64,000 nucleotides of DNA from a virus, in IMG/VR virus record IMGVR_UViG_3300022843_000001, positions 134,786-198,785 of that record; one strand, written 5' to 3'. The notes under the pieces were generated by a model, which made no database searches, had not been told where the DNA came from, and saw nothing but the letters and a program-made list of their open reading frames with translations. Shown piece after piece: positions 8,951 through 61,284 of this stretch; position 1 is the stretch's first letter, and each line of letters opens with the position of its first letter. Made by a program: the position numbers and the translations under genes.

Positions 8951-9010
8951 ATAATGACCACCTAGCTCTACGGAAAGGGTTAGGAAATGTTAAGGAGCAG
9001 TACAGTACCG

Positions 9011-9028
9011 TGTATACATTCGTATACA
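9011..9028 (+). promoter_or_regulatory. Hairpin upstream of RNAP gene (candidate vRNAP promoter)
   Basis: TGTATAC-ATTC-GTATACA, perfect 7-bp stem 20 nt before the RNAP start. Confidence 0.45.
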
Positions 9029-9048
9029 TGTCATGTTTGGAGAACATT

Positions 9049-11055
9049 ATGAAAAACTTACAACCAGCAGTGTCAGAAAAAGCAGCAATAGATCACACAA
9101 ATGACAGCTTGAAAACTGCTATGTATTTGATGCTTAGCAACTCTGATTTGGTTACAAAGACAGCATTTTACGCTAATGAAGAGTTATACGATGATTGGAC
9201 AGCTATGGTACACGAATACGTGTTTGATACTTTATTACCGAACAGACTGAAGCATGTAATAGCAGCAGTAACTAGCGTAACAAACAGTTGCGATAAGGTA
9301 TTGCTGAGCACTTTTGTAGGCATGTTGAAGTATAAAAACATGGTTGGGCCATTAAAGGTTAAGCAAACTGAGGGACAGCTTAAACGTTTTAATATACTGG
9401 TGGCTGAATTAGTTACTAGTATACTAATTGACGAAGGCTTGCTTGAAGTACAAGTAGAAAAAGTTACAACAGCATTAGGTGTTAGAACACATAAGTATGT
9501 GACGTTTACTAAACATAATGTCAAAGATGTGTATAAAGGCATTATGGATAAAGCTGGTGTTGTGCTGCAGAAAGATATTGCTGGGCGTAAGCCTAATAAT
9601 GCGCAGAAAACTTGTCTTGCATTGTTATCTAGTCAGGCGTATGAACTTCATACTGCTCTTAGTCAGGCAGTACTGCACAAGTTTTATACACTTAAACCTG
9701 ATTGGAACAAGACTCACGATAAGAATGGTAATGAAATTAAATGGGTTGGTGCTTATAAACGTAAGCATTACAAAGATATGGCAGCGGAAGTAATGGAACT
9801 GCAAGATTGCATTTACTATATTGCGCATAAGTTTGACAATCGTTTACGTGTCGGTCCTGAGGCAAATAGGCTTGAAGGTATTAATCTTCATGGAAAGTCT
9901 TTTGAAACTGGACAGCATTGTGCTGCAAACTATAAAGATATAAATGATCAGGCTTATAGAATGATTGAGCAGCAGTTGTATTCAGCTAGGCATAACCGTG
10001 TGACTGTTCAGCAAGCAGTAGATAATTTGTCATCTAATGACTATTTACCTGTTACTGAGGACATTATGCTTGCAGCTACTAGCCAGAAGGAAATGGCTAA
10101 CTTGCACACTGCTAAGAAAGCATTAAAGTCAATGCAACGACACGCTGAAGGCAAGCCTTGCGGTAATTTATTCGGCTGGGACTTCACGTTCTCAGGTGGC
10201 ATTATGGCAGGTCTGTTGTTCAAGAGTCCTGAGTTCTTACAGTCAGGTAATCTTTATGGTGAGGATAAGGTAACTGATGCACATGCTAGGTTTGGTGAGT
10301 TATTTGGTCTTAGTGGTATTGATAGAGATACTGTTAAGGATATGCAGCAACCAGTTATGCATGGTGGTCACATTTCAGGTTTGCTGAAAGTACTAGCAGA
10401 TCATGGATTTGAGATGTCAGAAGCAGAGGTAAAGAGAGGTCTTACAGGTGTATACGGTGAATGTGTTGGTAATGTAAATATCATTGCTGAGTGGGGTCAA
10501 GCGTTAGCATGCAGTGAGTATGCAACAATGACTTGGACTATGCCTGATAACATGATTTCAGCACACAAAGCTTACCAAAGTGGTATTGCTGTTGAGAATT
10601 ATGTTGCATCAGCTACTAGTAAGCGTGGTTATACTCATAATGTACAGCTTAGTAATTTGCCTTATGAGACTACTAATACTGGTAAACCTTTGTATGCTAA
10701 GGAGATGACTATTGGTCATACTAACTATAAAGTTACTACTCATCTGAGAGGATTATTTGCCGATATTCTTCATAGTGTAGATGCTTATGTGTTACGTAGA
10801 GTAGTGAAAGCTGTTACTGATCAGGGCTATACTATATTGGTTAAGCATGACAACTTTTATATTCAACCAGCAGCTTATCCTACTTTAATTAAAGCAGCTA
10901 AGAAGGTGTTTAGAGAGTTGCTTCATAGTAATTTGCTGCACAATATACTCACTGAAATTAGTGAACGGTCACATAAAGAATCTAATGTGCCAGAAATAGT
11001 TTATGGCGAAGCTCAAGATTTGATTGAAGAAAGCCATAATTTCTTACTACCATAG
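9049..11055 (+). CDS. Single-subunit T7-type RNA polymerase (668 aa)
   Basis: Motif A WDFTFSG (D at 10180), motif B RDTVKDMQQPVMHGG, LHSVDA and motif C VKHDNF (D at 10849); FDNRLR segment. Confidence 0.85.
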   Translation: MKNLQPAVSEKAAIDHTNDSLKTAMYLMLSNSDLVTKTAFYANEELYDDWTAMVHEYVFDTLLPNRLKHVIAAVTSVTNSCDKVLLSTFVGMLKYKNMVGPLKVKQTEGQLKRFNILVAELVTSILIDEGLLEVQVEKVTTALGVRTHKYVTFTKHNVKDVYKGIMDKAGVVLQKDIAGRKPNNAQKTCLALLSSQAYELHTALSQAVLHKFYTLKPDWNKTHDKNGNEIKWVGAYKRKHYKDMAAEVMELQDCIYYIAHKFDNRLRVGPEANRLEGINLHGKSFETGQHCAANYKDINDQAYRMIEQQLYSARHNRVTVQQAVDNLSSNDYLPVTEDIMLAATSQKEMANLHTAKKALKSMQRHAEGKPCGNLFGWDFTFSGGIMAGLLFKSPEFLQSGNLYGEDKVTDAHARFGELFGLSGIDRDTVKDMQQPVMHGGHISGLLKVLADHGFEMSEAEVKRGLTGVYGECVGNVNIIAEWGQALACSEYATMTWTMPDNMISAHKAYQSGIAVENYVASATSKRGYTHNVQLSNLPYETTNTGKPLYAKEMTIGHTNYKVTTHLRGLFADILHSVDAYVLRRVVKAVTDQGYTILVKHDNFYIQPAAYPTLIKAAKKVFRELLHSNLLHNILTEISERSHKESNVPEIVYGEAQDLIEESHNFLLP

Positions 11056-30045: not shown

Positions 30046-30747
30046 ATGGAAAAGTCTAGTGTACGACTTAAAAGAATACTGGTAGGTATGAAGTGCAGAT
30101 GCAACGGAACAGCAGGAGAGCACTCACTAGTTAACTATAAAAACAGAGGAATAACAGTCTGTGATTTGTGGTTAAACTCAACAAAAGACTTCATGTTATG
30201 GGCAATGGAAAATGGTTACACACCAGAGTTGTCTATAGACCGTATAAATAATGACAAAGGATACTCTCCAGATAACTGTAGGTGGACAGATCAATCAGTA
30301 CAATCTGCTAATACAAGAGTTCTTTATAAACATAACGTGTCTGGTTTCCGTGGGGTAAGTTGGAATAAGCAGTATGGTAAATGGGAAGTGTCTATAAGTG
30401 TTGACCGAAAAACAGTAAAGGTTGGCTACTACGACACTACCTTGGAGTCAGCTATGGCTTACGACACTTATATAAGGGATAACAATTTACCACATACAAC
30501 AAATAACACTGTTGGAAGGGTAGAGTCCAGCAAAGGAAAGTTATTGTTGTCTAGTAACGTATCAGGTTACGTAGGTGTATCAGCACCTAAACGTATAGCT
30601 CACTTAAAAAATTGCTGGTTCACTCAAATACAAGTAAAAGGTGAAAGAGTGTTTAGTAAGTATACTGATTCGGCAATGAACGCAGCAATTTTACGTGAAC
30701 AATACATAAAAGATAACAACTTACCTAACAAGTTGAACTTCCAGTGA
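30046..30747 (+). CDS. HNH homing endonuclease with two AP2-like domains
   Basis: RGITVC...LSIDRINNDKGYSPDNCRW; SGFRGV and SGYVGV repeats. Confidence 0.85.
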   Translation: MEKSSVRLKRILVGMKCRCNGTAGEHSLVNYKNRGITVCDLWLNSTKDFMLWAMENGYTPELSIDRINNDKGYSPDNCRWTDQSVQSANTRVLYKHNVSGFRGVSWNKQYGKWEVSISVDRKTVKVGYYDTTLESAMAYDTYIRDNNLPHTTNNTVGRVESSKGKLLLSSNVSGYVGVSAPKRIAHLKNCWFTQIQVKGERVFSKYTDSAMNAAILREQYIKDNNLPNKLNFQ

Positions 30748-37905: not shown

Positions 37906-40900
37906 TTAGTAAAAAACACCCTTAAAAACATTCTCAGGAACTACGCTTCCAACTCCAACAGACTCTAACGGCATGTGTGCAATACCACCGTAACGAGTAC
38001 TCATGTTAAGAACGTTAGCACTAAAGATAGTGTTCATGTTTCCTGTTACATACTCTTGTATAACCATTTCAGTAGACAAGTTAACAGGTTTATCTTTAAC
38101 CATTCTGTAAATAGCTTTCTGTATACGTAACCAGTAAGAAGGAAACATTAGTATACCTACGTCGCTTAGCTGTTTAACAGCCATAGGCAAGTTTTCTTTG
38201 TAATCAGGAAAAGAGTCAAGTACGTGTATTCGTGCTTGTGAAGGTGTCATTTTCTCATTCTGAATAGCATGTCTGTACAGAGTTTCTTTAGCAAACACAT
38301 CAATCCTATCCGTTACACTAGAACCTAATCTTACAATTTCACTATTTGGGCTAGTAGTAAACTGAGATACATAACCTACAACATCCTCGTCCGTCTTCAA
38401 TTCCTTAATACGATCAGTAACCATATCAAGTTGCTGTTGAGCACCTTTACCATAACCAGATTTACCAACTATCCCGCCAATATGACTTAAGAAGTCCTCA
38501 CCTTGAAAACCAATCTTATTTAACGTTTTAATAAAATGAGCTACAACATTCTTATTACCTTTTCTGTCTGTAAGCATGTACTCAAGTGCTGTTTGAACAT
38601 CAGCTTGGAATCCAGAAGAAGCATCAGAATTTTTAGCTACAAGATCAGAACCTAGAGAGTTAATAAAACCTTTGTTACCTAAGTTACCTACAGAAGTATT
38701 ATCAATCTGAGTTTTTAACGCAGTTATTCTATCCTTTATAGCTTGATTGTCTTTAGTACCTACTAACCTAACTTTTAGCTGAATAATTTCATTAGTTATA
38801 TTTTGATACTTATCATAGTCTTTAGATATTTCTAAAAAGTTTTTACCTATAAACAATGGTGAAGCACCTGCAACACTTAAGTAAGCTACGTTAGACATAA
38901 CATCAATAGCCCATTTAGCAGGGTTTACAACAACCATACCTATTTTAGAACCAGCTGTAAGGTCTTTTACTATTCTCATTGCCCACTTCATGTGGTGATT
39001 ATCAATAAGCGATTTAGAAAATCCACCTATAAGTAAATGAGACATGTCTTTTCTTACTAGCGTAATTTGGTCACTAAATTTTACACCGCTAGTTCCTTTT
39101 ACATCAGAAATTCTACCACCAACTGGTTTGTATCTAGCTCTAATAGACTTGTCTAATGTGTTGTAAGCTTTGCCATCATCTAGCTTAACAAACCAAGGGT
39201 TGTCCATGTTATCAGAATCAACTACTTCTTTTAACTTACCTAGATCTGTATCGTTTGTAGCAAGAAATCTATTTTCAGACATAACTATGTTATTTCGTAT
39301 TATCTGAGAATCCTTAATAGCCATGCTGTGTGCTGCACCTCTAACAAGAGTATTTACAAAGTCAGTCTCTATACCTAAAGTTTCTTTTTCAGCAGGACTA
39401 AGTACTACTTTAAATTTGTTACTTTCAGCTTTAACAACGTTAGAGTAGTTTATTTGACTAGCACTAGTTACGTCTACGTCTGTAGAACTCAACTTTATGT
39501 CAGTGTATGCTCCACGAAGTTCTGTAGAATCAATAAGCTTTTTGTAAACAATACCTAAATTGTCTTTAGTTGGATTTCTTAATACTTTCCAACCTGTTTC
39601 TTCACCTATTTCATAAGATCTTAAATCTTTAAGTTCTATAGCTTTTGTTTGATGAGATTCTTTGTAGTACTCAGGCAACATACTGTCTCTTAAACCTTCA
39701 GTACCTTCTACACCTAGCATAGTAACTCTATTAGCAATACTATTGTCTTTAACTAGGTTAACTAAATCAGTTTTAGCTAGGAATGACTCAAATTCTTTAT
39801 TACCTATTTTTTGTATGGACTTAAGAGCTAATAACTTTCTAATGTCTACACTAAATGTAGCACTATCTGACATAGCATAAGTAGAAGCTAAGTTGTACAA
39901 TTTGCCACCTTCTTTAGTACCTGCCTCAGTTTCTACAGTACGTTCTACGTTACGTTCAATTAAGTGATCTACATCTCTAATAGCAGACTTACTAACTTTT
40001 TTTATTTCAGTCTCTAACCGGGTTACTTCAGCGTCTATTTGACTGCTTGTAGTAATGTCACTAGCAAACACAAAGTAATCATGTAGCGGTAATTGAGTTA
40101 CAAACCTGCCTATAGTACTAACCTCATCTTTAGACACACCAGTAAGTGCTTTTTTAAACTCACTTTTTTGAAAAGCAATAGAAGAAATTTGCTGACCTTC
40201 CAGTAAAGCTGAATCAGCTAACAAATCTGCCTTGTTAACTTTATTAGTACCTTCACCAGTAATAGTTTGAACTAAACCTTGAAGTGCTTCAGACCCTTCG
40301 TAAATGCCGGATAATTTATCAGCAGCATCACTATAAAGAGGAAACAACCTTTTCATGTTTTTGTCTAAAGTGTTTAATAAACGTTTACCTTTTCTTTCAA
40401 TTTTACTGTTAAGCATACTAGATACAGCAGCATTTAAATAACGAAGTGAAGCTTTGTCTTGCATATCAGCAGCACTAGTTGTTTGTCTATTTTTTCCAGA
40501 AAACAAAACTGTTTCAAATTGTTTTTGCATATCTGTAATAAAGTTTATGTCTTCTTCTCTTTTACTTTTTCCTGAAACAATAACACCATTAATAGCAGAA
40601 AATAACTTTTCAGCATTAGGATCACCAATTTTAAAATCAGCGTAAGTAACATTATTAATAATAGTTATTACTTTATTTTTGACAAATTCTAATACTTTAG
40701 CTAATTTATTTTTAGAAGTGTTATTTAGTGAACTGTACACTTCAGCAGCTACATCAGGTTCTGAATTCATAATAGCAATAAATTCAGATAACATAGTTTC
40801 TTGTGAAGAATTTATATCAATGTAATCCATTCGTTCTTGAGTTTTATTACTAAAAGTTTTTCTTAAAACATGATTCATAGTTTTATCTATGTAAGCCATG

Positions 40901-43900
40901 TTTAAGTCTAATTGAGTACTGGTACCACTAGTTTTATTAGCAAATCTTTTAACCCAATCAATTACAACTCCTGCTGTAAAACTGTGAACTATTTCATGTT
41001 CAATAAGTTCTATTCTAGTTTTACGATCAGTAGAATTTTCTGAAATAACTACAGTATCAGTTTCAGTATCAAATTCAAATTCTTCACCTATTCTTACATT
41101 AGAACTGTTAGATCCTTCAAGAAAACTTTTAATAATAGGTGATTCTTCTTTGTACTGCTCTAATATAGTTTCTACGTCTGTAAGTGACTCAGTAGCTGTT
41201 TCTGGCTCACTAGCAGTTGTAGTAGTATTAGGAGCAGCATTATCAAATGCGTCCTTCATAGCTGAATTAGAAGGGTTAGCAGTAGCAGGTTCAGCATTAG
41301 GAACAGTAGCAGTCTCAACTTCTGTATTAGCATCAGCACCAGCAAACTCTCTGGCTTTTATACTGTTACCAATAAGAGCGTTAGTCTTCATGTTCATTCT
41401 TTCACTGTTAGCTATTTTAGCTTTAGCAGCTACTCTTGCATCAATCTTTGCTTTAAGTTTAGTAAACTTATCTGACTTAGCTAGTGCAGGATCATAAAAC
41501 TCAATAGAGTTTAGTACTTGTTGATGAGTGTCATACTCACCTAAAAGTCTTTTATTTAATCTTACGTAAGCTTCTTCTACAAGGCGTACAGTCTCTGTTG
41601 TGCCAATTATCTGATCGTGTACGACAATTGCACCGCTATCACCTAGGACTTCGTTTATAGCGTGATACATAAGCCCAGAGTCTATTCCGTGTATAACAGA
41701 CACATCCATTATAGATTGAAACAGTTCTTGTTTACGTGTTAGTACTGTGTGGCCACCTTCTTTAGCTAGGTCACTATCTCCGGTTAAAGGACTAGATACT
41801 TCAACAATTTTTGTAAGAGGCATACCATAAGTTTTAACTTGGTCAATACCAATACCATCTAATACAGCTCCAAAAGGAAGTACTTTCATTCTATGGTTAT
41901 CTTTAACTTGAGTAGCTAAATTATAAATGTCAGCACCATCTTTTCTAAAGTCTTTTAGGTAAGCTTCGTAAATTTCTGCCTGCATTATTTCATACAGTTG
42001 TTTAGGAACACCTTTAGTAATAAGAGCAGATTTAATATTAGAGTACAGACCTGATATGTCTTTTAAATCTTTACTGTCAGCATTTTTAAGACTTGGTGAA
42101 TCCATTAGGTCACCTAAGTAATCTCTAATGTTTTCGTCAGCTAGGTTGTCTATAATACGTTTAGCTAGGGTGTCAGCCATAGATTTAACAGCTCCTTTAG
42201 GTCCCTGTCCGTATATAAATACCATAGTAGGATCTTTAGCAAAGGCTCTTTCACCTTCTTTAGTACCACCAAATAACAAGTTTAAAGTAGTTTGTAATAA
42301 TTCTCTTACGTTGCCTTGGCCTATGTCTGGTGACATAACTAAACTGTCTTTTTTATTAATAAACCTGCTAGTAGCATCTGACATAAGTGCGTAAACGTCA
42401 TCTATTTTATTTTCGTCTAGTACTAAATTTCCATCTGCATCTGTAATAATACCTATGCTTTCCATAAACGTTTCTACATTGGCGTTAGTTCCTAATGCTT
42501 GTTGAAATGTTAATGTACCACCCTGTGCTGTAGCGTCAGCTGAATCCATAAGCTCAGTTTGTAAAGTGTCACCAGTATTATCTCTAATATCTTGAACACC
42601 TTTTAAAGTTACTAACAATGCTGCGTAGTCTACGCCTTGAAATCTTTCAGGTAGGTTACTTAAAGCTACTATTTTACGTTGCAGAGTTTTTGCATTTTCG
42701 TAACTTTTAAAGTCTTGTAAAGCAGCATCTAGATTAGCATTGCCACCTTCTACAATTTCTTTATAAGTCAGTTCTTTATCATCTAGTGTTTCTTTAATGC
42801 TGTACACAAGACGGTTAAAATCAAAAGACTTTACTTTAACTGACTGAGTACCACTAGTAAGCATGTGTCTGCTTTGTTTAGATGCATGAGCGTTTAACAC
42901 ACTGTTATCGTAGTAAAGTCTTATGTTTCTACCACCTTTCATTATCATGTGCAGTTCTTCAGGATTACCTTCAGAATTAACAAGCTGGTTATAAGTTTCT
43001 ATAATATCGTCTAAAGGTACTGTTTTAGATAAGTTTTGACCACTAACACTTTCTTGCCTATCAACAGAGTGATCATCAGAAGTTTTAATTCCAAATAAAG
43101 ACTTAATCATTAAAGGTTTATTTTTAAACTTGTCAGTTAAAAGTTTTGTAGCTGACTCACCTGTTTTGTCAGTTTCTTCTTTAATAAGTGCAAATAAATC
43201 ATGTACTGTGTTATTTACGTAAAGAGGATTATCAAATAATTTCTGTCTAGCACTTTGTGTACTAGGAGATTGAACATTACCATCAGGATCACTTTGAGCT
43301 ACATCAACTGAACCGTCCTGTTTACCTGTGTAAGGCATAGTAATATTAGATGGCTGTGTCACATGTCTTACAACAGATAACGTGTCTACTATGGTACCTA
43401 GTTCGGTACCGCTTAAGTCAGCTGCAGTTCTATTAAGAAAATGAGATGACTCCTGAGACAAAGTATCAGTAAGTTTACCGGAAGAACTAACTTTGTATTT
43501 AGAAATGCCTAGTTTACTTGTATTTAAAGAAACACTTTTAGCATTTGTTGTTGTAATTTTCTTTGACTCAAAAGTTTGTGTTATAGCTTCACTGTCAGTG
43601 TAATCACGAATAGTAGTTACATCATCATGAAAATTTACATAGCCTTTTTCTTCAAGTAGCTCTAGTGCTGCTATACCTTGAGTGTAATAAAGTTGCTCAA
43701 TTTCTGCTGCAGTCTTAGGACTTTCTTCCATAGACTTGTATCTAGCTTGGTTTTTGTACATCCATTTACGACCAATACTAGCAGCTAGCCTAGACAATGG
43801 TAGTACTGGAAGTATTCCATCTACAGACAATTGACTCATTTGTACGTCATTATTACGTGCTTTGTCAGACTCACCTTTAACTGCTTCCATAACTTCATGA

Positions 43901-44217
43901 AGTGCTATAGCTTTTGAAATACTGTCTTGATCTACATTATCGTTGTCTATACCAATAATATCTTCTTTAAAAGTATCAGCTTTTTGACCAGAATTTAATA
44001 TTCTTGTAAGAGCATTCTCTATTTTTAAAAGAGTAGGTTTAGATTCATCTTTACCCGGAAGTCCTTCAACACTATTAGTATTTACAAGTCTGTGAACATC
44101 TTCAGGTGTAATATTCCATACATTAAAACGCATGTTTTTTTCTGTATTAGGATCTATTTCTACACCATTAAATTCTTGAATGTATTTTAAATATAGTTCT
44201 GGTGAAGGACAGGACAT
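37906..44217 (-). CDS. Virion-encapsidated RNA polymerase (catalytic part) with zincin-like motif
   Basis: Motif A ADATAQG (42535), motif B RAFAKDPTMVFIYG (42211-42237), IHGIDS and motif C VHD (41614); HEIVH at 40984-40998; position equals N4 gp50. Confidence 0.85.
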   Translation of the reverse strand: MSCPSPELYLKYIQEFNGVEIDPNTEKNMRFNVWNITPEDVHRLVNTNSVEGLPGKDESKPTLLKIENALTRILNSGQKADTFKEDIIGIDNDNVDQDSISKAIALHEVMEAVKGESDKARNNDVQMSQLSVDGILPVLPLSRLAASIGRKWMYKNQARYKSMEESPKTAAEIEQLYYTQGIAALELLEEKGYVNFHDDVTTIRDYTDSEAITQTFESKKITTTNAKSVSLNTSKLGISKYKVSSSGKLTDTLSQESSHFLNRTAADLSGTELGTIVDTLSVVRHVTQPSNITMPYTGKQDGSVDVAQSDPDGNVQSPSTQSARQKLFDNPLYVNNTVHDLFALIKEETDKTGESATKLLTDKFKNKPLMIKSLFGIKTSDDHSVDRQESVSGQNLSKTVPLDDIIETYNQLVNSEGNPEELHMIMKGGRNIRLYYDNSVLNAHASKQSRHMLTSGTQSVKVKSFDFNRLVYSIKETLDDKELTYKEIVEGGNANLDAALQDFKSYENAKTLQRKIVALSNLPERFQGVDYAALLVTLKGVQDIRDNTGDTLQTELMDSADATAQGGTLTFQQALGTNANVETFMESIGIITDADGNLVLDENKIDDVYALMSDATSRFINKKDSLVMSPDIGQGNVRELLQTTLNLLFGGTKEGERAFAKDPTMVFIYGQGPKGAVKSMADTLAKRIIDNLADENIRDYLGDLMDSPSLKNADSKDLKDISGLYSNIKSALITKGVPKQLYEIMQAEIYEAYLKDFRKDGADIYNLATQVKDNHRMKVLPFGAVLDGIGIDQVKTYGMPLTKIVEVSSPLTGDSDLAKEGGHTVLTRKQELFQSIMDVSVIHGIDSGLMYHAINEVLGDSGAIVVHDQIIGTTETVRLVEEAYVRLNKRLLGEYDTHQQVLNSIEFYDPALAKSDKFTKLKAKIDARVAAKAKIANSERMNMKTNALIGNSIKAREFAGADANTEVETATVPNAEPATANPSNSAMKDAFDNAAPNTTTTASEPETATESLTDVETILEQYKEESPIIKSFLEGSNSSNVRIGEEFEFDTETDTVVISENSTDRKTRIELIEHEIVHSFTAGVVIDWVKRFANKTSGTSTQLDLNMAYIDKTMNHVLRKTFSNKTQERMDYIDINSSQETMLSEFIAIMNSEPDVAAEVYSSLNNTSKNKLAKVLEFVKNKVITIINNVTYADFKIGDPNAEKLFSAINGVIVSGKSKREEDINFITDMQKQFETVLFSGKNRQTTSAADMQDKASLRYLNAAVSSMLNSKIERKGKRLLNTLDKNMKRLFPLYSDAADKLSGIYEGSEALQGLVQTITGEGTNKVNKADLLADSALLEGQQISSIAFQKSEFKKALTGVSKDEVSTIGRFVTQLPLHDYFVFASDITTSSQIDAEVTRLETEIKKVSKSAIRDVDHLIERNVERTVETEAGTKEGGKLYNLASTYAMSDSATFSVDIRKLLALKSIQKIGNKEFESFLAKTDLVNLVKDNSIANRVTMLGVEGTEGLRDSMLPEYYKESHQTKAIELKDLRSYEIGEETGWKVLRNPTKDNLGIVYKKLIDSTELRGAYTDIKLSSTDVDVTSASQINYSNVVKAESNKFKVVLSPAEKETLGIETDFVNTLVRGAAHSMAIKDSQIIRNNIVMSENRFLATNDTDLGKLKEVVDSDNMDNPWFVKLDDGKAYNTLDKSIRARYKPVGGRISDVKGTSGVKFSDQITLVRKDMSHLLIGGFSKSLIDNHHMKWAMRIVKDLTAGSKIGMVVVNPAKWAIDVMSNVAYLSVAGASPLFIGKNFLEISKDYDKYQNITNEIIQLKVRLVGTKDNQAIKDRITALKTQIDNTSVGNLGNKGFINSLGSDLVAKNSDASSGFQADVQTALEYMLTDRKGNKNVVAHFIKTLNKIGFQGEDFLSHIGGIVGKSGYGKGAQQQLDMVTDRIKELKTDEDVVGYVSQFTTSPNSEIVRLGSSVTDRIDVFAKETLYRHAIQNEKMTPSQARIHVLDSFPDYKENLPMAVKQLSDVGILMFPSYWLRIQKAIYRMVKDKPVNLSTEMVIQEYVTGNMNTIFSANVLNMSTRYGGIAHMPLESVGVGSVVPENVFKGVFY

Positions 44218-47200
44218 TAAATTTTACACCTTGGATTTAGTTTAGTATAAAGAGCTTCAGCTTTTTTCTTGTCAGAAATAACTTGTGAAGGTTCATTATC
44301 AAATGATTCTGTCATAACTACCTCTGTTTGTACATCAGGAAAAGCTTGTTCAAATGCACTAAGTATTTCAGGGTACTTATCTAAAGAAGTAAAATTTCTT
44401 AGTAAGTTTTTAACTTCAGCAATATTAGTATAACCAGCTTCTTTAAGTTTTGTAATTATTTTAGGTAACGTAGGAGTAATTGTAGTAGAAACAATTGCTT
44501 GTTTAGAAGGACTATCTTCAACAGAAGCAATTATACTATCAAATGAACTTAGTTGTTTATTTATAGTGTCACGTTTCTTTTGTACTTCTGGTGTTACTTC
44601 AACAGTTTTTATTTCTTCAACAGCAGCTTCCTGTTTTGTAGAAGGAGTAGGTTTAGGACTAGGAGCAGCAGGTCTTTTAGGACCTACAACATTTTCTTTC
44701 TTTTCTGGTCCAACAACTAATTCTTTAGCAGCAGTAGCAGTATCTGTAACTGTTTTAGCAACTGAGTTGTAAGCATTTTCTAACTGTTTATCAAATTTAG
44801 CCATACCTTCTTCAGTTTCAAGATTAGGCATATCAGGCATATTAGGTAAGTCAGGTAAAAATTCCTTAACTTTTTTTGTAAAATCTTTAGAACTTTCTGA
44901 GTCTAAAAGACTTATCAATTCTTTTGTTGATTCAGCATTTTTAAAATACTCAACTAAACCTTTAGATTTAATATTTTTAGACAACTCAGCTATTTTAGCT
45001 TTAGCTTCTGTTCTAACAGGTTTACGTATTTTATTTGATTCTAGTTTTAACTTGTTAGTAAGTACACCTAGACTAACTTTGTTTTTGCCTTTTTTAACTG
45101 AATCAAGTTCTTTGTATTTATCTAGGGCAGCCTCAACAATTTCTAAAGAAGGTAAATCTGCTACTTTGCCATTTATTGTATCTGAAACAAGTTTAAATAC
45201 AGAGTCTGCTCCATTTTCTGAAAGAGCTGGACCTTTAGCAATATCTTTTAGCTCTGGCTTAATATTGTCTATAGTTGTTAAAGTATCGTTACTTTGACCT
45301 ATATTTTTTAAAGCTTGTTTTTTATTAGCAAGAGTTTTCTGTAATTTCTTGGCTAGGTCCGGGTGTTTTTTATCAATAACAGATATTACTTTTGTAAGAT
45401 CGTTTATTTCCATATCTTTAACAGCAGCTAAAACAGTATTAGAAGACTTAATTCCGTTTCTAAGACCTAACTCTATAACACCTCTAGCAGTACTAGATTC
45501 TAGATTTTTAACAATTTCTACACTTGCTGTACCAAGTGCAGTAACAGTTTTAACTAAGTTTTCTACAGGAACATTTTTTAGAAGTTTTTTAGCTTTTTCA
45601 GTACTTTTGTTTACAACATTAGTACCTACTTTGCTTACAACTCTTCCTACACTAGTTGCCATTAACTCTGTTTTTACAAGAGCTTGATCACTTCTAAATT
45701 GACTAATTAACTTAGTTTTTATAGAGTTAAATTGTTTTGGATCAGCAGCAGCTTCAGTAGTTATGTTCCCATTAGTTTGTATTTTTATGGTTTCTACACC
45801 TACTACGTCATCAGCTAGTAAGTCATCAATAGTTTTAGCATTTAAAACAGTGTCAATATTTTTTTCTTTGCCTGCTATTTCTTTATCTGCTATAGCTGTT
45901 CTTGCTGTTTCAGATTCAGACAATACTGCACGATCTGTTTCAGACAATAGTTCAAAACTTGCTTTAGTAAGTGCATCTTGACTTATTTCTTTAACTTTTT
46001 TACCACCTCTTACAGCAACACCTGCAGTTCCTACAACAGTGTCTAAAGCTGCACCAGCAACAACTCCCGGAGCAACAGTAGCACCTTTAACACCACCGCC
46101 TACCATAGCACCTACTAAAGCAGAGTAGTTGGCTTCATCTATATTACCTTCTTCATTAAGTTCATCTAAAGCAGACCTAATAGAAAAGTCATCCATCTTA
46201 GCTTGTAGTATTGAATGCCAAGTTTGTAAATATTCTAGTGTTGCTTCTAATCCGCCAACAGCAGACACTTTTACAGCAGCTTTTAGTACTCTTTTAGCAA
46301 CTTCTACACTGTATTTTTTAGGTATAGGAGACAATGCTTTTGAAATGTCTTTTGCATATTGTTTAGTAGCGTTTTTAGCAACTGTAACACCTGCTATAGA
46401 TGGCAAAGCACTCATAAATATAGCTCTATCAAACATCATAAGTGCTAAAGCAGCAGGAGCATTAACTAATTTGTGCATAACTGAAGACGCTTCACCATTT
46501 TCTTTAATGTAAGCTTCTTCATTTTGTTGTAATACAGCAGCAGTTGATAAACTTACTTGACTAGCTTTTTTACCAACAGACTTAGTAGCAGCTAGTGCTT
46601 TTTGTAATACGTTTAATTTTACACCTGCATCTTTAGCAGCTACTGCATCAGTAACAGCATCTGATATATCACCTATTGCATTAGCACCACGAAAAAGCTT
46701 TTTACCAAGCATAGGTAAACCACCAATACCAGCAGTACCAAGAGTACCAGCAATGCCTGACGCTATTGTTCCAGTTAAACTGTCTACAGCTAGTTCTGGA
46801 AGTACTTTTGCAGTTGTACTTATAGCGTCTATTACATTACCTGCTGCGTCTAAATACTCACCTTCTCTTAAACTTATTCTAGCGTTAGCTAAACTGTTTA
46901 TGCCTGAAGATGCTGCTTCATTAAGCTCTTGCCTTACCGTGGCTCTAACGTTACTTCTAACGTCAGCTTCTTCCATTAGATTAGGGTTAGATTCTCCTGA
47001 AGCAATATTTTTTATGTTGTTAAATTCTCTATCAACAGCAGCAGTACCTAATGAGTACAAGTCATTAGCAAAACTAGTACTATTTGCAAGACCACCATTA
47101 AATCTGTCTATGTTGTTAGCTTGTTCTTCAGACACAGGAGTAACTTTAGGTTCAGGTGTAAGCTTTTGTTGCTTACTTGCTATTTTGTCTTTTAAAGAAT

Positions 47201-47276
47201 CAATTTTCATGTCCAATAAAGAAGACGAGTAGTCTACCTGATAAGCATTTCCAGCATTTCTAAATATTTCAGACAT
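44217..47276 (-). CDS. Ejection protein; probable detached N-terminal domain of vRNAP (1019 aa)
   Basis: Gly/Ala-rich hydrophobic segments and long helices; TAATG-coupled to the vRNAP gene. Confidence 0.65.
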   Translation of the reverse strand: MSEIFRNAGNAYQVDYSSSLLDMKIDSLKDKIASKQQKLTPEPKVTPVSEEQANNIDRFNGGLANSTSFANDLYSLGTAAVDREFNNIKNIASGESNPNLMEEADVRSNVRATVRQELNEAASSGINSLANARISLREGEYLDAAGNVIDAISTTAKVLPELAVDSLTGTIASGIAGTLGTAGIGGLPMLGKKLFRGANAIGDISDAVTDAVAAKDAGVKLNVLQKALAATKSVGKKASQVSLSTAAVLQQNEEAYIKENGEASSVMHKLVNAPAALALMMFDRAIFMSALPSIAGVTVAKNATKQYAKDISKALSPIPKKYSVEVAKRVLKAAVKVSAVGGLEATLEYLQTWHSILQAKMDDFSIRSALDELNEEGNIDEANYSALVGAMVGGGVKGATVAPGVVAGAALDTVVGTAGVAVRGGKKVKEISQDALTKASFELLSETDRAVLSESETARTAIADKEIAGKEKNIDTVLNAKTIDDLLADDVVGVETIKIQTNGNITTEAAADPKQFNSIKTKLISQFRSDQALVKTELMATSVGRVVSKVGTNVVNKSTEKAKKLLKNVPVENLVKTVTALGTASVEIVKNLESSTARGVIELGLRNGIKSSNTVLAAVKDMEINDLTKVISVIDKKHPDLAKKLQKTLANKKQALKNIGQSNDTLTTIDNIKPELKDIAKGPALSENGADSVFKLVSDTINGKVADLPSLEIVEAALDKYKELDSVKKGKNKVSLGVLTNKLKLESNKIRKPVRTEAKAKIAELSKNIKSKGLVEYFKNAESTKELISLLDSESSKDFTKKVKEFLPDLPNMPDMPNLETEEGMAKFDKQLENAYNSVAKTVTDTATAAKELVVGPEKKENVVGPKRPAAPSPKPTPSTKQEAAVEEIKTVEVTPEVQKKRDTINKQLSSFDSIIASVEDSPSKQAIVSTTITPTLPKIITKLKEAGYTNIAEVKNLLRNFTSLDKYPEILSAFEQAFPDVQTEVVMTESFDNEPSQVISDKKKAEALYTKLNPRCKI

Positions 47277-47282
47277 AGTTAG

Positions 47283-49289
47283 TTACTTACCTTGTTCTTC
47301 TAATAAAAGTTTCAAGTATTCTGCTTGTTGTTTTTCAGCTCCTGATTTAGGTTTAAAATCTTTTAGTTTTTGATCACCTGTTCTAAGAGCTTCTAATAAC
47401 TGTTTAATTTTATCTTCATCAACTTTACTTTTTAAATCTCGAAGTTTTTGGAGTTTTACATTGCTTGCAGTTTTTTCAGCTTTTTCTTGAGCTTGTTCAA
47501 AATTAAAATTTTGTAGTCTAAAATCAGTACCATTAGGGTTAGTTCTTTCAGGTCGATCTCCAGCACTGTAGTTAAAAATAGAAGTATCTTTATACTTAGG
47601 ATTTTTTGCGTCTACTTCACTTAAACCTTTTTGAGCTGCAGCTTTTTCTGCTTCAGTACTATTAGGGTCTAATGCTATAGCTATAAAACCTCTTTTATCA
47701 GCAGCAACTTTTTGAGATTTAACTTTTGCTCTAGCCTCTAATTCTTTAGCTTTTGTAGTTATTTCTTTAGTTTTAAGTTCAGGTGTGTACGTATTACCGG
47801 GACCAGAAAGTATTCTATTTTCAGCAGGTGTAATATCTCTTTCTTTTGTGCTAATAGGAGCTTCTACAGGTTCTTCAACATCATCACTAGTATCTATTTC
47901 ATCTTCAGAAATTATAGGCTTAAGCTTAATTTTAGGCTTAGTTTTAGGTTTATTTCCACCTAGTTTAAAGTCTCTACTAACTCCTGTTTGTTCTTCAATA
48001 AACTTTTGAGCTTGTTTTTGTCTTTCTTCAGAAGTAGTAGCTTGCTGTATAGAATTTTTTAATATTTTGTTAATAGAGTCATCGTACTGAGAAATTAAAC
48101 TATTATATAGAGACTGTTGTTGTTGAAATTTTTGATCATTACTTTCACTACCACCAATTTTTCTACTGCTAGAAGCTTCTTGGTTTTGTTGAGCACCTAG
48201 TGCAATAGCAGCCATAGTATCATCGTTAGACATCATATCTGATATGTCTTTGCTAAACGTACCATCACCATTTATTAATTTTAAAGCTCTCATAGCTCTA
48301 ATAGTGGCTGCTGGTCCAACTTTAGATTGAGACTGACTAGCAGCAACTATAGTTTGTAAATCATCTATAGACATATCAGGAGAATTTAAAGGAAATAAAC
48401 CAAAAAATGTTTCAGGAGTAAGTGCTTCACTGATCCATTTTATAGCACCTTTACTTTGAGGAACATTTAATGTTTCTGAAATATCTTTAAAAGCATCAGC
48501 ATTTTCTTTTTGACTTATAGAACCAGTTTTAAATGCGTTAGTTCCAATATTAGTAGTATTACTATTTCCTGAGTTGCTAAATATTTTGCCAGCAAAATTT
48601 AATCTATTTTCAGCATTTTTACTTAATCTTTCTTGACTTTTAACATCTAACACACTGTAATTTTCAGTAGCTGTTTGTTGCATTTGTGCTATTTCTGTTT
48701 CACTTAGACCAGCTTCTCTTGCTAAAGCAGCTACATCTGATTTTATTTTAGCAGGGTCTTGATACAGTCTAGGGTTATCAATCATATTTTGGATAAACCC
48801 ATCCATAAGATCATCTTTTCTTTTATAACCATCTACTTGATTTAGATTTATAGAAGTATTTCTTCCACCGTCACTAATAGTTCTTGTACCAGAAGTTTGT
48901 GTTTGGTAACCCGGAGAATTAAATATAGCTTGTTTTGTGCCTTGTTCCATCTCAAAAGAAGGCTGCATATCTTTAGCTTGTTGAATTAAATTGCTCATAG
49001 CTAAATTTTTATCTATACCTCTTTGTTTTTCTAAATCAAAAATACGTTGTTCTTCAACTACAGCTCTTTGACCTTCGTTTTCACGAAAATTTTGTTGTCT
49101 TTCAAAATTGGCTTGTTGTTGCATAACAGCATTTTGCTCAAGCTGTGCATTTCTAGCTTCTTGCATTTGTGCATTTATACTAGCAAGACCTTTTTGAGAA
49201 CTCTCAATAGAACGTGCAGCGTTAGCAAAAGCTTGGTTAGAGCCACTAAAGTTAGGATTTATTCTAGATCTAAAAAGTTCACCAGCCAT
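47283..49289 (-). CDS. Ejection/internal virion protein (N4 gp51-like position)
   Basis: 668 aa, Gln-rich, Cys-free; synteny. Confidence 0.6.
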   Translation of the reverse strand: MAGELFRSRINPNFSGSNQAFANAARSIESSQKGLASINAQMQEARNAQLEQNAVMQQQANFERQQNFRENEGQRAVVEEQRIFDLEKQRGIDKNLAMSNLIQQAKDMQPSFEMEQGTKQAIFNSPGYQTQTSGTRTISDGGRNTSINLNQVDGYKRKDDLMDGFIQNMIDNPRLYQDPAKIKSDVAALAREAGLSETEIAQMQQTATENYSVLDVKSQERLSKNAENRLNFAGKIFSNSGNSNTTNIGTNAFKTGSISQKENADAFKDISETLNVPQSKGAIKWISEALTPETFFGLFPLNSPDMSIDDLQTIVAASQSQSKVGPAATIRAMRALKLINGDGTFSKDISDMMSNDDTMAAIALGAQQNQEASSSRKIGGSESNDQKFQQQQSLYNSLISQYDDSINKILKNSIQQATTSEERQKQAQKFIEEQTGVSRDFKLGGNKPKTKPKIKLKPIISEDEIDTSDDVEEPVEAPISTKERDITPAENRILSGPGNTYTPELKTKEITTKAKELEARAKVKSQKVAADKRGFIAIALDPNSTEAEKAAAQKGLSEVDAKNPKYKDTSIFNYSAGDRPERTNPNGTDFRLQNFNFEQAQEKAEKTASNVKLQKLRDLKSKVDEDKIKQLLEALRTGDQKLKDFKPKSGAEKQQAEYLKLLLEEQGK

Positions 49290-49296
49290 TATATTA

Positions 49297-49761
49297 TTAC
49301 CCTATTGCACTACCATCTACATTAGCTGCTTTAGCTCTTGCCATTCGGTCTATATATTCTTGACTACCAGCTTCCACACTATTTAATGCTAAACCATTAC
49401 GAGTTCTTTCCATAAGATCTGCATTATAAGAAGTTGCATTATTAGCAAGACTTCTATTCATACCAGCTAGCTCAATACCAAACTGTTTTTTTCCTTGCTT
49501 ACGCATTTGGTGAGCATTATACATACCATATAGGCTACCTAAACCTTGAGCAGCTAACCCAAAGTTTTGAAATCCATTTAAAGATTCTGGTGCTTTTGGG
49601 TAATTTTGATCACCCATTAAAACACCATTACCTGCATTCATTCTGTAGTCTTGTGGTTTATAACTAAAATCGTCATAGGAAGCTGCTAAACTAAATTCTT
49701 TAGCAGGGTCGTATATTTGTGTTGTTGTAGGAATTTTGAAATTACTGTAAGTTTCACCCAT
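49297..49761 (-). CDS. Small internal virion protein (N4 gp52-like)
   Basis: FGLAAQGLGSLYGMYNA amphipathic Gly-rich segment; synteny. Confidence 0.6.
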   Translation of the reverse strand: MGETYSNFKIPTTTQIYDPAKEFSLAASYDDFSYKPQDYRMNAGNGVLMGDQNYPKAPESLNGFQNFGLAAQGLGSLYGMYNAHQMRKQGKKQFGIELAGMNRSLANNATSYNADLMERTRNGLALNSVEAGSQEYIDRMARAKAANVDGSAIG

Positions 49762-49778: not shown

Positions 49779-52520
49779 TTAAACTACACCTAAAGTTAAG
49801 GCGTTTTTATGATAGTTGCCCACTACTGTACCATAATCATACATGCTAGAATAGTTGTATTGTATTGGTCCAGCCATAAACCTATATGTGTCAGGACTAT
49901 TAAGAAAAGCTAGGTAGGTTGGGTCTAATCCATTTTCTTGTGCTTCTATTAATCTAGCTAGTTCTTGTGACCTAATATCAAATTGATTATTTATTTCTAG
50001 CATCTCTGCTTGAAGCTCTAGTATATCTGCATTTATATCAGCTACTATCATATTACTAAACTGTGTGACGCTTTGTGTAATAACAGCAGGATCACTCATA
50101 CCTGTTGAACCTGAACCAGTTTGGCTAGTTAAGTAAGCAGCACCAGCAGCAACAACTACTTTTAAAAATTCACTATCTATACTAGATATTATAGCAATTG
50201 CTATAGAAATAATAACATAATTAGCTAATGCAACCTGAAAAAAAGCAGCTAAAGATAGTTTTGTAGGGTCAAAAGTTATCAGAGTGTAAACTATTAGTAC
50301 TATTTCTAGTAAATCTGCAAACGCTGAAGTTTCATACCAAGCCACTTCAGTTATCTGTACAGAATAAAAATTCATCCTTAAAGCTAGGGTGTACAACTGT
50401 AGTTGTTCAACTGGAGTTAAACTATCAATAGAAAAATGAGACAACAGTATAGAAAAGTTATCATCCCCTAGTTTACTAAGGCTCATGTTTTCTTGCCCAT
50501 TACCTAAAATAAACTCTATACCAGACATGTTTGTTAATACAATTGTAGAACAAGAAGTAGTAGACACCTGTTTTCTCATAGTAAGAGTGTTTACGTTAGT
50601 TACAGTATGGCTGTAAGTACCAATTGGACCTGAATCAAATATGGTAGTAGAAGCATTTTGTGTAGACCATACTACAGCTCGTTTTACATTTTGTTCTAAA
50701 AACGTAGCATAATACCCTTGGTTGTCTACTGTTGTATTAAAATCAACAGCTTCTGTAATTACTAATGTATAAAACATCTCATAAAGAATTTTAGAAACTA
50801 CTGTTGCTGTATCAGTAGGGTTTACAGCGAAGGATAAAAATCCTTCTGATATACCAGCAATATTAGGGTTAGCTTCTATTTGTTGTATTATGTCGTTAAA
50901 CTCTAAGTCTAAAGTACCTAATAGCCCTACTATACCATCATAGTTTTCTTGTCCTACACTAACTACACTGGCAGAAACTGTGTTAGACCTAAGTATACCA
51001 ATAGGCATAAACTCTAAGTTACTTAAACTACTGCTTACCATTTTAACATCAGGGTAAGTATTACTACTTATGTCATACACCCAATATTTCCATTCAGCAA
51101 TTTCGTCAATATAGTAAGTAACAATTACATAAGAAATAATTCTATAAGCAGGTCTAGTAATCACACTAGTCAAAGTTTCTGTTAAAGGAGATGGCATATT
51201 AGTGTTATCTGTGTCTACAGGGTTAGCAACACTATAAGTAATAGTAGTTGATATGCTGTGTTTTCCTTCAGCTAAAGCGGTAGCTTCAAAACTGTCTTGT
51301 GTAGAGATACTTTCTATACTTACAACCATAGTAACAGAGGAACTTAACAAGTTTACTGTTTCCGGGGTTATAGTAAAACCTAAACCTGTACCACTAGAAG
51401 AAATTTGGTTTATGGTAGTTCCTGCAGAAGCATCACCACCAGAACTTGTCACTGTAAAAGTTATTACATTTCCGTCTACATCTACACTATCTACTGTTAA
51501 CACATCATCATTGTCCAAAGTTATTGTGTCTAATGCACTGTAGAAATTAGTACTGTCGCTTCCAGAACTAGAGTACGAACCATTACTGCCAGAATCATCG
51601 TAGTTTGCCTCTGTTTGATCTTCTAACAAGGTATATTCATAAGGTAATGAGTTTGCTTCAGTACTAATAGTAAAGTCTGTGTACGATGTACCAGCTAGCA
51701 ATACTACAGTATCAACTGAGGTAAAATGGGTACCGTTTGTAGCTGTTCCTGTGTAACTTAAATTAACTGTGACAGTTTTGTTAGCAGGTATAAGTCTATC
51801 GACACTAACTGTGTACATTAGTGTGTTATCTCCTTGAACTACTTCTGAATAACCAGATAAATAAAACGTAGCAGTTTCTCTTAGTCTCTGTACTGTTAAT
51901 TGGTAGTTATTAGCTCCTGCATTGTACGTAACAGCAGATAAAAAATAGCTATCGAAAGTACCGTACTCGTCACTAAAAGTTAATGTATTAAGATGGGGAA
52001 GATAACTATAAACATTTTGTAAATAGTGTTTAAAATAAACTTCTTTTGTAGGGTACTTTTGTACTGCACTAGTAATATTAACTGTGTAACCAGTTATAGA
52101 AAACAAAGCATTAATAACAGCAGATTGGTCTATAGTATTTTTACGTACATTTGTTGTAGGTAAAGCATAAGGATACTCACCTTCTTCTGCGTAATTGTAG
52201 TAACCGTCTATTTTTCCTTGAGCAACTTTAGTGTACTTATTAAACGGAGATATTAATGCAATAGCAGAATTTTTTGTGTACTCAAGTGCTATTTTAACTA
52301 ACGCATCTTCTTCTAGATCTGTAGTTGAAGGATAAACTTTCTGTGAAACATGTTGTACTTGTACTACGGTCTCATCTTCGATACCAAATATACCTACTAC
52401 AAATTCCAGTAAAGGCATAACAATATCATCCCATACTGTTTCTACAGCCTCTACTACTCCTTCAACAACATCTTCTACTATGTCTATTATATCTTCAATA
52501 ATTTCTACAACAGCACCCAT
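49779..52520 (-). CDS. Virion structural protein (N4 gp53-like) with Calx-beta-like insertion
   Basis: 913 aa; hydrophobic C-terminal helices; TVTVNLSYTGTATNGTHF...LLAGTSYTDFTI segment. Confidence 0.65.
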   Translation of the reverse strand: MGAVVEIIEDIIDIVEDVVEGVVEAVETVWDDIVMPLLEFVVGIFGIEDETVVQVQHVSQKVYPSTTDLEEDALVKIALEYTKNSAIALISPFNKYTKVAQGKIDGYYNYAEEGEYPYALPTTNVRKNTIDQSAVINALFSITGYTVNITSAVQKYPTKEVYFKHYLQNVYSYLPHLNTLTFSDEYGTFDSYFLSAVTYNAGANNYQLTVQRLRETATFYLSGYSEVVQGDNTLMYTVSVDRLIPANKTVTVNLSYTGTATNGTHFTSVDTVVLLAGTSYTDFTISTEANSLPYEYTLLEDQTEANYDDSGSNGSYSSSGSDSTNFYSALDTITLDNDDVLTVDSVDVDGNVITFTVTSSGGDASAGTTINQISSSGTGLGFTITPETVNLLSSSVTMVVSIESISTQDSFEATALAEGKHSISTTITYSVANPVDTDNTNMPSPLTETLTSVITRPAYRIISYVIVTYYIDEIAEWKYWVYDISSNTYPDVKMVSSSLSNLEFMPIGILRSNTVSASVVSVGQENYDGIVGLLGTLDLEFNDIIQQIEANPNIAGISEGFLSFAVNPTDTATVVSKILYEMFYTLVITEAVDFNTTVDNQGYYATFLEQNVKRAVVWSTQNASTTIFDSGPIGTYSHTVTNVNTLTMRKQVSTTSCSTIVLTNMSGIEFILGNGQENMSLSKLGDDNFSILLSHFSIDSLTPVEQLQLYTLALRMNFYSVQITEVAWYETSAFADLLEIVLIVYTLITFDPTKLSLAAFFQVALANYVIISIAIAIISSIDSEFLKVVVAAGAAYLTSQTGSGSTGMSDPAVITQSVTQFSNMIVADINADILELQAEMLEINNQFDIRSQELARLIEAQENGLDPTYLAFLNSPDTYRFMAGPIQYNYSSMYDYGTVVGNYHKNALTLGVV

Positions 52521-60418: not shown

Positions 60419-60799
60419 TTAAAGTCCTTCAGTTATATGAATGTCAATTAATTCTTGTTCAGTAGTGCAGTCATTAATGTCTATTTGCATAGCGTCATCA
60501 GCGTTACGAATAACTAGTCTATCAGCTTCTGCTTGAGTAGCATCATTTCCGGGAATTTGTAACGCTATAATAGCGTCTAATGGTGCAAATGCTAATTGTC
60601 GTTGTACTCTACGTAAATCATGTGTAATTAGTTTAGCAGAATCTATATTTGTTACCACCGCGTCACCTACAATTCTCCATGCTGAACGAAAAACGCTATC
60701 GGGTACTGACTCCACCTCTTTCCATGTTGCACCTTCAGGGATTGAGGACTGCTTTGAGCAAATCGCAACGGTGTTGTCTTCTTGTTGATATACGTACAT
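60419..60799 (-). CDS. Tail-fibre-associated small protein
   Basis: FRSAWRI...AKLITHDLRR...LD pattern of fibre assembly-type proteins. Confidence 0.55.
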   Translation of the reverse strand: MYVYQQEDNTVAICSKQSSIPEGATWKEVESVPDSVFRSAWRIVGDAVVTNIDSAKLITHDLRRVQRQLAFAPLDAIIALQIPGNDATQAEADRLVIRNADDAMQIDINDCTTEQELIDIHITEGL

Positions 60800-61284
60800 T
60801 AATGCTTCCTCAAATAGTTAATAGCCTTCTCAAGAAGCCCTATATTATCTTTAAAATGGCCTAAAGCAAAGTTACAGCTTATACATAACAAGCCTCTAAC
60901 CTCACCTGTTATGTGGTCATGGTCTACGTTTAAGCTCTTAGTGCAGTCATCTTCATGTACATTACATATTAAACATGAGTAATCCTGACTTACCAGCATA
61001 CTCGTATAGTCATCGTAGGTTATGCCATAGTTTTTCTTTAACCTAGTATTGGCTACTTGCCTTGGGTTAGCTTTATACCATGCCTTAGCCCTGCTGCTGA
61101 CCTTATCTTTTCTACTGTCGTCATAGGCGATATACTGATAGTTGCGACAAGGAATGCATATATTCCTATATCCATGCTTTGATCCCTTATCAATAACAAA
61201 GCCTTTAAGATCTTCCGCAGTATGAGCCGACTTATCACAAGAAGGGCAGGTTCTTAGTGCTTCCATCTTATGATTTACCTCCAA
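60799..61284 (-). CDS. Endonuclease VII-like HNH homing endonuclease
   Basis: YGIT...CLIC...LNVDHDHITGEVRGLLCISCN. Confidence 0.85.
   Translation of the reverse strand: MEVNHKMEALRTCPSCDKSAHTAEDLKGFVIDKGSKHGYRNICIPCRNYQYIAYDDSRKDKVSSRAKAWYKANPRQVANTRLKKNYGITYDDYTSMLVSQDYSCLICNVHEDDCTKSLNVDHDHITGEVRGLLCISCNFALGHFKDNIGLLEKAINYLRKH

Follow-up and report, generated by a model that had tools for sequence, protein, structure and literature searches.

The main question posed by N4-like phages is how a protein of ~380 kDa, the virion RNA polymerase (vRNAP), passes through a 35 Å tail channel, and the locus described here adds a second question to it: what holds such a polymerase together when its gene is broken in two? 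The locus lies in a 64,000-nucleotide stretch (hereafter, the window) of the IMG/VR virus record IMGVR_UViG_3300022843_000001, covering positions 134786–198785 of that record. In place of the single polypeptide of ~3000–3800 amino acids (aa) expected of the N4 type, the minus strand encodes two consecutive open reading frames (ORFs): a 1019-aa piece, which appears to be a detached N-terminal domain (NTD), and a 2103-aa piece carrying the RNA polymerase (RNAP) domain and the C-terminal domain (CTD). Each piece contains a single cysteine (Cys), located at the broken end, and we consider it probable that these two residues form an end-to-end disulfide restoring one linear chain for ejection. The elements of the split gene are the following (window coordinates).

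44217..47276, minus strand: putative NTD piece of the divided vRNAP, 1019 aa, C-terminus ...LNPRCKI
37906..44217, minus strand: RNAP-CTD piece, 2103 aa, N-terminus MSCPSPE
44215..44219, minus strand: TAATG junction, in which the last A of the NTD-gene TAA stop is the first A of the RNAP-CTD ATG
44226..44228, minus strand: codon (TGT) of Cys1017, the sole Cys of the NTD piece and the 3rd residue from its C-terminus
44209..44211, minus strand: codon (TGT) of Cys3, the sole Cys of the RNAP-CTD piece
41218..44217, minus strand: predicted RNA polymerase domain (residues 1–1000 of the 2103-aa protein), N4 mini-vRNAP fold, catalytic motifs
37906..41127, minus strand: predicted C-terminal domain (~residues 1031–2103 of the 2103-aa protein), homologous to the N4 gp50 CTD

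A preliminary description of this locus had reported the two ORFs overlapping by TAATG, the presence of only two Cys in 3122 residues, at the facing ends, and the absence of Cys from the neighbouring ejection proteins of 668 and 154 aa, and had contrasted them with N4 vRNAP as a single Cys-free chain. The coordinates and termini proved exact, and a script-based count bore out the rest: one Cys in the 1019-aa protein (residue 1017), one in the 2103-aa protein (residue 3), none additional, none in the 668- and 154-aa ORFs, and none in the 3500 aa of N4 gp50. A 913-aa ORF of the same operon contains one Cys, and the remaining window ORFs have a Cys content of ~0.4–7%. The one-base overlap is predicted to couple the translation of the NTD and RNAP-CTD genes.

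The 2103-aa protein can be assigned as a T7-like single-subunit RNAP domain of the N4 vRNAP type followed by a gp50-like CTD, as judged from profile comparisons and a structural model. Its residues 1773–2072 match positions 3133–3377 (of 3406) of phrog_2206 (virion RNA polymerase, E 9e-21), a further RNAP PHROG match is located around residues 597–706, and a 24-sequence family profile (A1) aligns in hhalign over residues 322–691 with N4 gp50 residues 1327–1697 (E 2e-5), the alignment including GRN..NPHASKQSR, the motif A aspartate and the motif B K..YGQG. An AlphaFold2 model of residues 1–1000 (mean predicted local distance difference test score, pLDDT, 81.9), compared over its whole length by Foldseek, retrieves the N4 mini-vRNAP/gp50 structures 3C3L, 2PO4 and 9PNQ as best matches (E ~1e-13, probability 1.00), with mitochondrial and T7 RNAPs next; residues 1–5 and 964–1000 are disordered in the model, so that Cys3 is predicted to sit on a disordered N-terminal tail. 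Other sequence searches returned nothing, namely a PDB search with the RNAP profile (no match even at E 10), a Pfam search of the query proteins P0001 and P0002 (no significant match) and a tblastn search of P0001 against cultured phages (no match, though PT11-V19 and R22Y carry diverged homologues); BLASTP detects the PT11-V19 homologue at 24% identity (E 6e-13). The offset of ~1005 in the gp50 alignment places Met1 of the 2103-aa protein at about gp50 residue 1006. Since the cryo-electron microscopy (cryo-EM) regions of N4 gp50 comprise an NTD (1–906), a low-complexity linker (907–1006), the RNAP (1007–2101) and a CTD (from 2124) (PMC13434306), the gene is cut where the linker meets the polymerase.

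The 1019-aa protein yields no Pfam or PHROG match. It contains hydrophobic segments at ~270–303 and ~387–425 and a Pro/Lys/Glu-rich linker at ~850–890, followed by a small conserved C-terminal module ending ...NPRCKI. Its assignment as the detached NTD of a vRNAP comes from the unsplit chains: a 17-sequence NTD-family profile (A2) matches the N-terminal 130–650 residues of three unsplit vRNAPs with E 7e-28 to 9e-25, namely P0168 (3275 aa), P0172 (3154 aa) and P0177 (2761 aa), of which P0172 and P0177 further match the RNAP-CTD profile and P0168 matches the RNAP and CTD regions of N4 gp50 by BLASTP. Thus, the part of the preliminary description that saw the N-terminal domain as having become a separate gene stands on the match to unsplit chains, and its proposed correspondence to gp50 residues 1–1000 stays suggestive: direct profile comparison with the N4 NTD reveals one colinear motif (G..EA...Y.QT) at a non-significant E of 0.02–0.045, and the NTD profile compared with gp50 residues 1–1100 was non-significant even with 134 sequences.

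Several observations indicate that the split is real and that its junction geometry varies among relatives. The exact 1019-aa protein is present on 17 contigs, and five independent assemblies from different samples agree in all 121 bp spanning the junction, which excludes the frameshift or assembly error at 44217 that the preliminary description had wished to see checked. The two-gene layout is also present in the relatives examined, including the cultured Alteromonas phages PT11-V19 (vB_AmeP_PT11-V19, OP751378) and R22Y (PP212876). A search of IMG/VR for close relatives found none with one protein as query and succeeded with an alignment as query. Junction spacing in relatives takes values of −8, −4, −1, +2, +6, +7, +8, +11 and +16 nt with differing frames, the PT11-V19 junction being in-frame (TAA ATA ATG). 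Such variable spacing and frame exclude both an indel artefact and a conserved recoding signal.

The Cys pair is conserved at both sides of the junction. An NTD-profile HMMER search of 1.84 billion cluster representatives gave 239 matches; among the matches listed, 126 of the 134 NTD-family representatives of at least 800 aa have a sole Cys located 0–7 residues from the C-terminus, and the other eight comprise two with the terminal Cys plus extra Cys and six without Cys. One NTD-profile match, P0138, says nothing on this rule, as it stops 46 nt short of a contig end. On the RNAP side, a sole Cys at position 3–7 is found in all 36 homologues (31–55% identity, 73,588 residues in total). The Cys3 column is invariant among 24 homologues (52% mean column identity), and only 10 columns, that of Cys1017 included, are invariant in the alignment of 17 NTD homologues (29% mean column identity), given which the exclusive terminal pattern can be considered far beyond chance. 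The pair is present in 16 of 16 complete junctions read in loci, plus PT11-V19 and R22Y, and no Cys was found in any gp51- or gp52-like neighbour that was read (13 relatives). Conservation of both the split and the pair, which had been proposed as a check, is thereby established. At both Cys sites TGT and TGC are both used, and the flanking residues vary; since codon choice, flanks and spacing change while the Cys stays, selection acts on the thiol itself.

Internal Cys do occur in this family (residues 227 and 236 in P0123 and residue 2168 in P0186), and Cys avoidance is, therefore, not absolute. A separate candidate origin of the C-terminal Cys codon, as a by-product of a Shine-Dalgarno sequence (AGG/GGG TGT before ATG), was rejected: the Cys persists in L006 and PT11-V19, where that context is missing, TGC also occurs as its codon, and the context has no bearing on the N-terminal Cys.

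Beyond the two-piece layout, Cys residues track the breaks of the chain wherever these fall (with the exception of one junction considered below). Unsplit chains are Cys-free, including N4 gp50 and the metagenomic P0168, P0172, P0177 and P0038 (2761–3275 aa), as are N4 gp51 and gp52. In a three-piece IMG/VR phage (L029/L023), the NTD has its Cys at −3, a 1003-aa polymerase has exactly two Cys (residues 3 and 1000), and a 1280-aa CTD has the sole Cys6. These pieces are 58–67% identical to those of the two-piece phage L021, in whose Cys-free RNAP-CTD linker the extra break falls, and a tree of the CTD tail nests L029/L023 inside the two-piece clade (support 100/100). A different arrangement is found in L032, with a fused NTD-RNAP (2054 aa, Cys2053) and a separate CTD (Cys3), which in the CTD-tail tree groups with the unsplit N4 and L033 (100/99, with a long-branch caveat), and in L031, where a 2804-aa NTD-RNAP has a terminal Cys and the next protein, of 3840 aa, begins MASC. 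Taken together, these arrangements are read as at least three fissions that arose separately and brought a new Cys pair each time.

Two of these loci have further features. At L029:12787-19020, five ORFs (120, 108, 751, 595 and 413 aa; ~6.5 kb) lie between the RNAP and CTD pieces; all but the first contain Cys, and they have no PHROG match and no Pfam match above threshold. Their presence implies that clasped pieces need not be neighbouring genes. At L031:10001-28415 (on a 112-kb contig), the 3840-aa protein has 2OG-Fe(II) oxygenase, UvrD-like helicase and NADAR matches, and it may represent a giant multi-enzyme cargo clasped to the polymerase.

In the window, the split gene belongs to a tight minus-strand operon of 913-, 154-, 668-, 1019- and 2103-aa ORFs, so that the RNAP-CTD gene is located downstream of gp53-, gp52- and gp51-like ejection genes, as in N4-type loci. 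The upstream members are the following.

49779..52520, minus strand: 913-aa N4 gp53 homologue (tail plug), opening the ejection operon; phrog_2220, E 8.5e-28
49297..49761, minus strand: 154-aa Cys-free N4 gp52 homologue (outer-membrane ejection protein); phrog_2646, phrog_16623
47283..49289, minus strand: 668-aa Cys-free ORF at the N4 gp51 position (periplasmic tunnel ejection protein), by operon position and zero Cys

The first two assignments agree with the PHROG families of N4 itself, in which gp53 falls in phrog_2220 and gp52 in phrog_2646/16623; the 668-aa ORF has no family match in Pfam or PHROG.

What might the paired thiols do? In the mechanism that we favour, an N4-type vRNAP chain has been broken at the linker/RNAP boundary into a piece comprising the membrane-inserting NTD with the linker and a piece comprising the polymerase with the CTD, and translational coupling would favour their equimolar synthesis. 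In the virion, Cys1017 of the first piece and Cys3 of the second would form an inter-chain disulfide, recreating a near-linear thread of 3122 residues, both Cys being few residues from the chain ends. Behind gp52 and gp51, this thread would pass through the ~35 Å tail channel like "beads on a string", with the NTD in front and the polymerase pulled along after it, and the exclusion of other Cys would prevent any wrong or branching disulfide from arising in the virion or periplasm. A location of the Cys at most seven residues from the chain ends fits what a thread passing through a narrow channel would need. In our estimate, it is likely that a disulfide joins the pieces end to end and so gives back a single linear chain for ejection; that the bond forms in this phage is inferred, cryo-EM having shown such a bond in cyanopodophage A4 only. 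A further step, in which reduction by thioredoxin or glutathione in the host cytoplasm later frees the polymerase from the membrane-bound NTD, is a weaker and tentative suggestion. A complex prediction for NTD residues 900–1019 with RNAP residues 1–600, made with our own alignments, gave weak support, with a median of 0.43 (runs 0.73, 0.43 and 0.36; best control 0.00). In calibration, 58 of 80 solved complexes reached that mark, as did 2 of 110 mismatched pairs; passes at or below 0.60 are more often wrong than right unless the pairing is likely beforehand, and this result (shared contacts at least 22%, partner pLDDT at least 69 across the runs) is not counted as evidence for or against docking.

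A number of points weigh against a disulfide between the two pieces. For this phage as for any vRNAP the bond is a prediction, and its precedent is one of analogy, since A4 gp27 compared with the NTD family (A2) gives an hhalign E of 0.58, that is, no detectable homology. Virions assemble in a reducing cytoplasm, leaving the timing and route of bond formation to explain, and the Cys-rich ORFs of the window include no recognisable thiol oxidase, thioredoxin or Dsb-like gene. Nor is the clasp present at every break: at L042:9001-20245, a Cys-free 1158-aa NTD-like protein is followed by a 430-aa protein, whose sole Cys is its last residue, and the third protein, at least 2151 aa long, has its Cys at 4, 1193 and 1198, so that the first junction (1158 aa / 430 aa) is without a Cys pair and the following one has it. 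Finally, the two thiols may instead bind a metal or another partner.

The metal alternative proposes that the terminal Cys bridge the pieces through a Zn or Fe ion shared between copies, in the manner of a zinc hook, with no disulfide. Two thiols at facing ends would suit such a site, and, as several vRNAP copies are packaged per N4 virion (PMC13434306), four thiols could meet. Nevertheless, neither Cys has a conserved His, Asp or second Cys beside it, a metal site would not obviously need a location 0–7 residues from the chain ends, and the one solved analogue, that of A4, shows a disulfide; we regard a metal bridge as improbable.

Equally improbable, in our view, is that each terminal Cys has its own partner (portal, capsid interior, gp51 or a host protein) or serves for acylation or a thioester, the pieces being joined non-covalently. 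Non-covalent docking is conceivable, and the motifs flanking the Cys are loose, as independent partners would allow. What speaks against it is the distribution of the residues: a Cys on one side of a break is always matched by one on the other, both are missing where the chain is fused, the polymerase piece of the three-piece phage has one Cys for each of its two breaks and no more, and the gp51- and gp52-like proteins offer no Cys to pair with.

A still less probable explanation, which we consider quite unlikely, holds that a true single polypeptide is made after all, by recoding (frameshift or read-through) or by a reaction of the Cys resembling that of an intein or a ligase. The TAATG overlap would permit a −1 shift into the second frame, and the in-frame PT11-V19 junction would likewise suit continuous translation. 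Among relatives, however, the frame relation and spacing differ with no slippery site conserved, and programmed frameshifting or read-through was rejected in view of the spacing range of −8 to +16 nt in different frames and the ~6.5 kb and five genes that separate two clasped pieces in L029. A split intein with protein trans-splicing was rejected as well, as only 0–7 residues lie beyond either Cys and Pfam reveals no intein domain. The remaining explanation, an indel in a single 3122-aa gene introduced by sequencing or assembly, has nothing in its favour except that metagenome assemblies often contain such errors, and it can be dismissed as having virtually no chance of being correct, given the identical junction in five assemblies and a split shared by homologues that include two cultured phages.

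The disulfide-joined thread thus remains our preferred reading, and its meaning extends beyond this locus. As breaks carry Cys on both new ends (with the one exception in L042) and whole chains carry none, the family amounts to a natural experiment on the thread model, and its outcome speaks for ejection requiring a linear thread that is covalently continuous. The same rule provides a positive reason for the long-noted absence of Cys, namely that only the intended disulfide can form, and, if it is true that cytoplasmic reduction cuts the link, a natural redox-triggered release of an injected enzyme. In a wider form, the giant ejected proteins of podophages would leave the capsid as one thread, in which cuts at inter-domain linkers, gene insertions or cargo swaps are tolerated if re-stitched by terminal Cys pairs; such a redox-reversible, "disulfide-stitched polyprotein" system would span N4-like and A4-like phages and explain the Cys-free remainder, and we see its prospects as evenly balanced. 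The finding also bears on annotation, in which broken vRNAP genes and Cys at chain ends have been put down to sequencing errors; some cases in PMC11445570 could represent genuine gene fissions with this same clasp.

As to the setting of the locus, the IMG/VR record is 198,785 bp long, and the same phage was found as a 64,120-bp contig. Record positions 131326–131961 are repeated at 195436–196070 (96% identical), and the N4-like part has a GC content of 30–35%, vs. 37–40% in the first ~140 kb; a ~64-kb N4-like genome has probably been joined to another sequence in this record, as a chimera or concatenation. Three further window genes may be listed.

9010-11055, plus strand: 681-aa single-gene T7-like RNA polymerase; phrog_2051/414
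30046-30747, plus strand: AP2-domain protein, by domain match
60799-61284, minus strand: endonuclease VII gene, 9 Cys; PF02945, E 6e-25

The 681-aa polymerase probably corresponds to RNAPII of N4, there a heterodimer, and the AP2-domain protein may be of the homing-endonuclease type.

Overall, the closest known systems are N4 gp50 and the other vRNAPs of Schitoviridae (e.g., gp71 of Pseudomonas phage DEV), with which the window proteins share the domain order of NTD (putative in the window), linker, T7-like RNAP and CTD. With N4 in particular, the common features comprise the RNAP fold and motifs, a homologous CTD, the gp53-gp52-gp51-gp50 operon and extreme Cys avoidance; the Cys content of Schitoviridae ejection proteins is 0.00075% vs. 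0.865% for the proteome, a depletion attributed to passage through the periplasm (PMC11445570). The differences are that N4 gp50 is one chain, whereas the window phage has two genes broken at about gp50 residue 1006 with one Cys per piece at the broken end, and that the window NTD is too diverged from that of N4 for a significant direct match. In the current model for N4, the NTD goes ahead of a flexible "beads-on-a-string" chain (PMC13434306), and it is this model that we have extended here to a chain in two pieces; among the papers that could be searched, none described split vRNAPs with terminal Cys.

The nearest parallel in mechanism is provided by cyanopodophage A4 (A-4L), in which cryo-EM of the packaged pre-ejectosome revealed a disulfide between gp27 Cys1715 and gp26 Cys5 (PMC12002296). 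In the A-4L genome, Cys1715 is the sole Cys of the 1717-aa gp27 (position −2) and Cys5 the sole Cys of the 1114-aa gp26. Like the window pair, these are consecutive genes for packaged, ejected proteins with sole Cys at facing termini, and the ...NPC... context of gp27 resembles the ...NPRC... and ...NPGC... of the NTD family. On the other hand, A4 has no virion RNA polymerase and no detectable sequence homology to the window proteins, so that the likeness is one of mechanism, not of family; its disulfide, moreover, was read as a local interface stabiliser, not as a rule marking gene fissions or restoring a linear thread (PMC12002296). That disulfides occur in the virions of phages of Gram-negative hosts is also demonstrated by crAss001, with inter-subunit disulfides in its tail and portal-vertex proteins (PMC10172136). 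Those bonds stabilise structural subunits side by side, whereas the link proposed here would run end to end between cargo proteins leaving through the tail.

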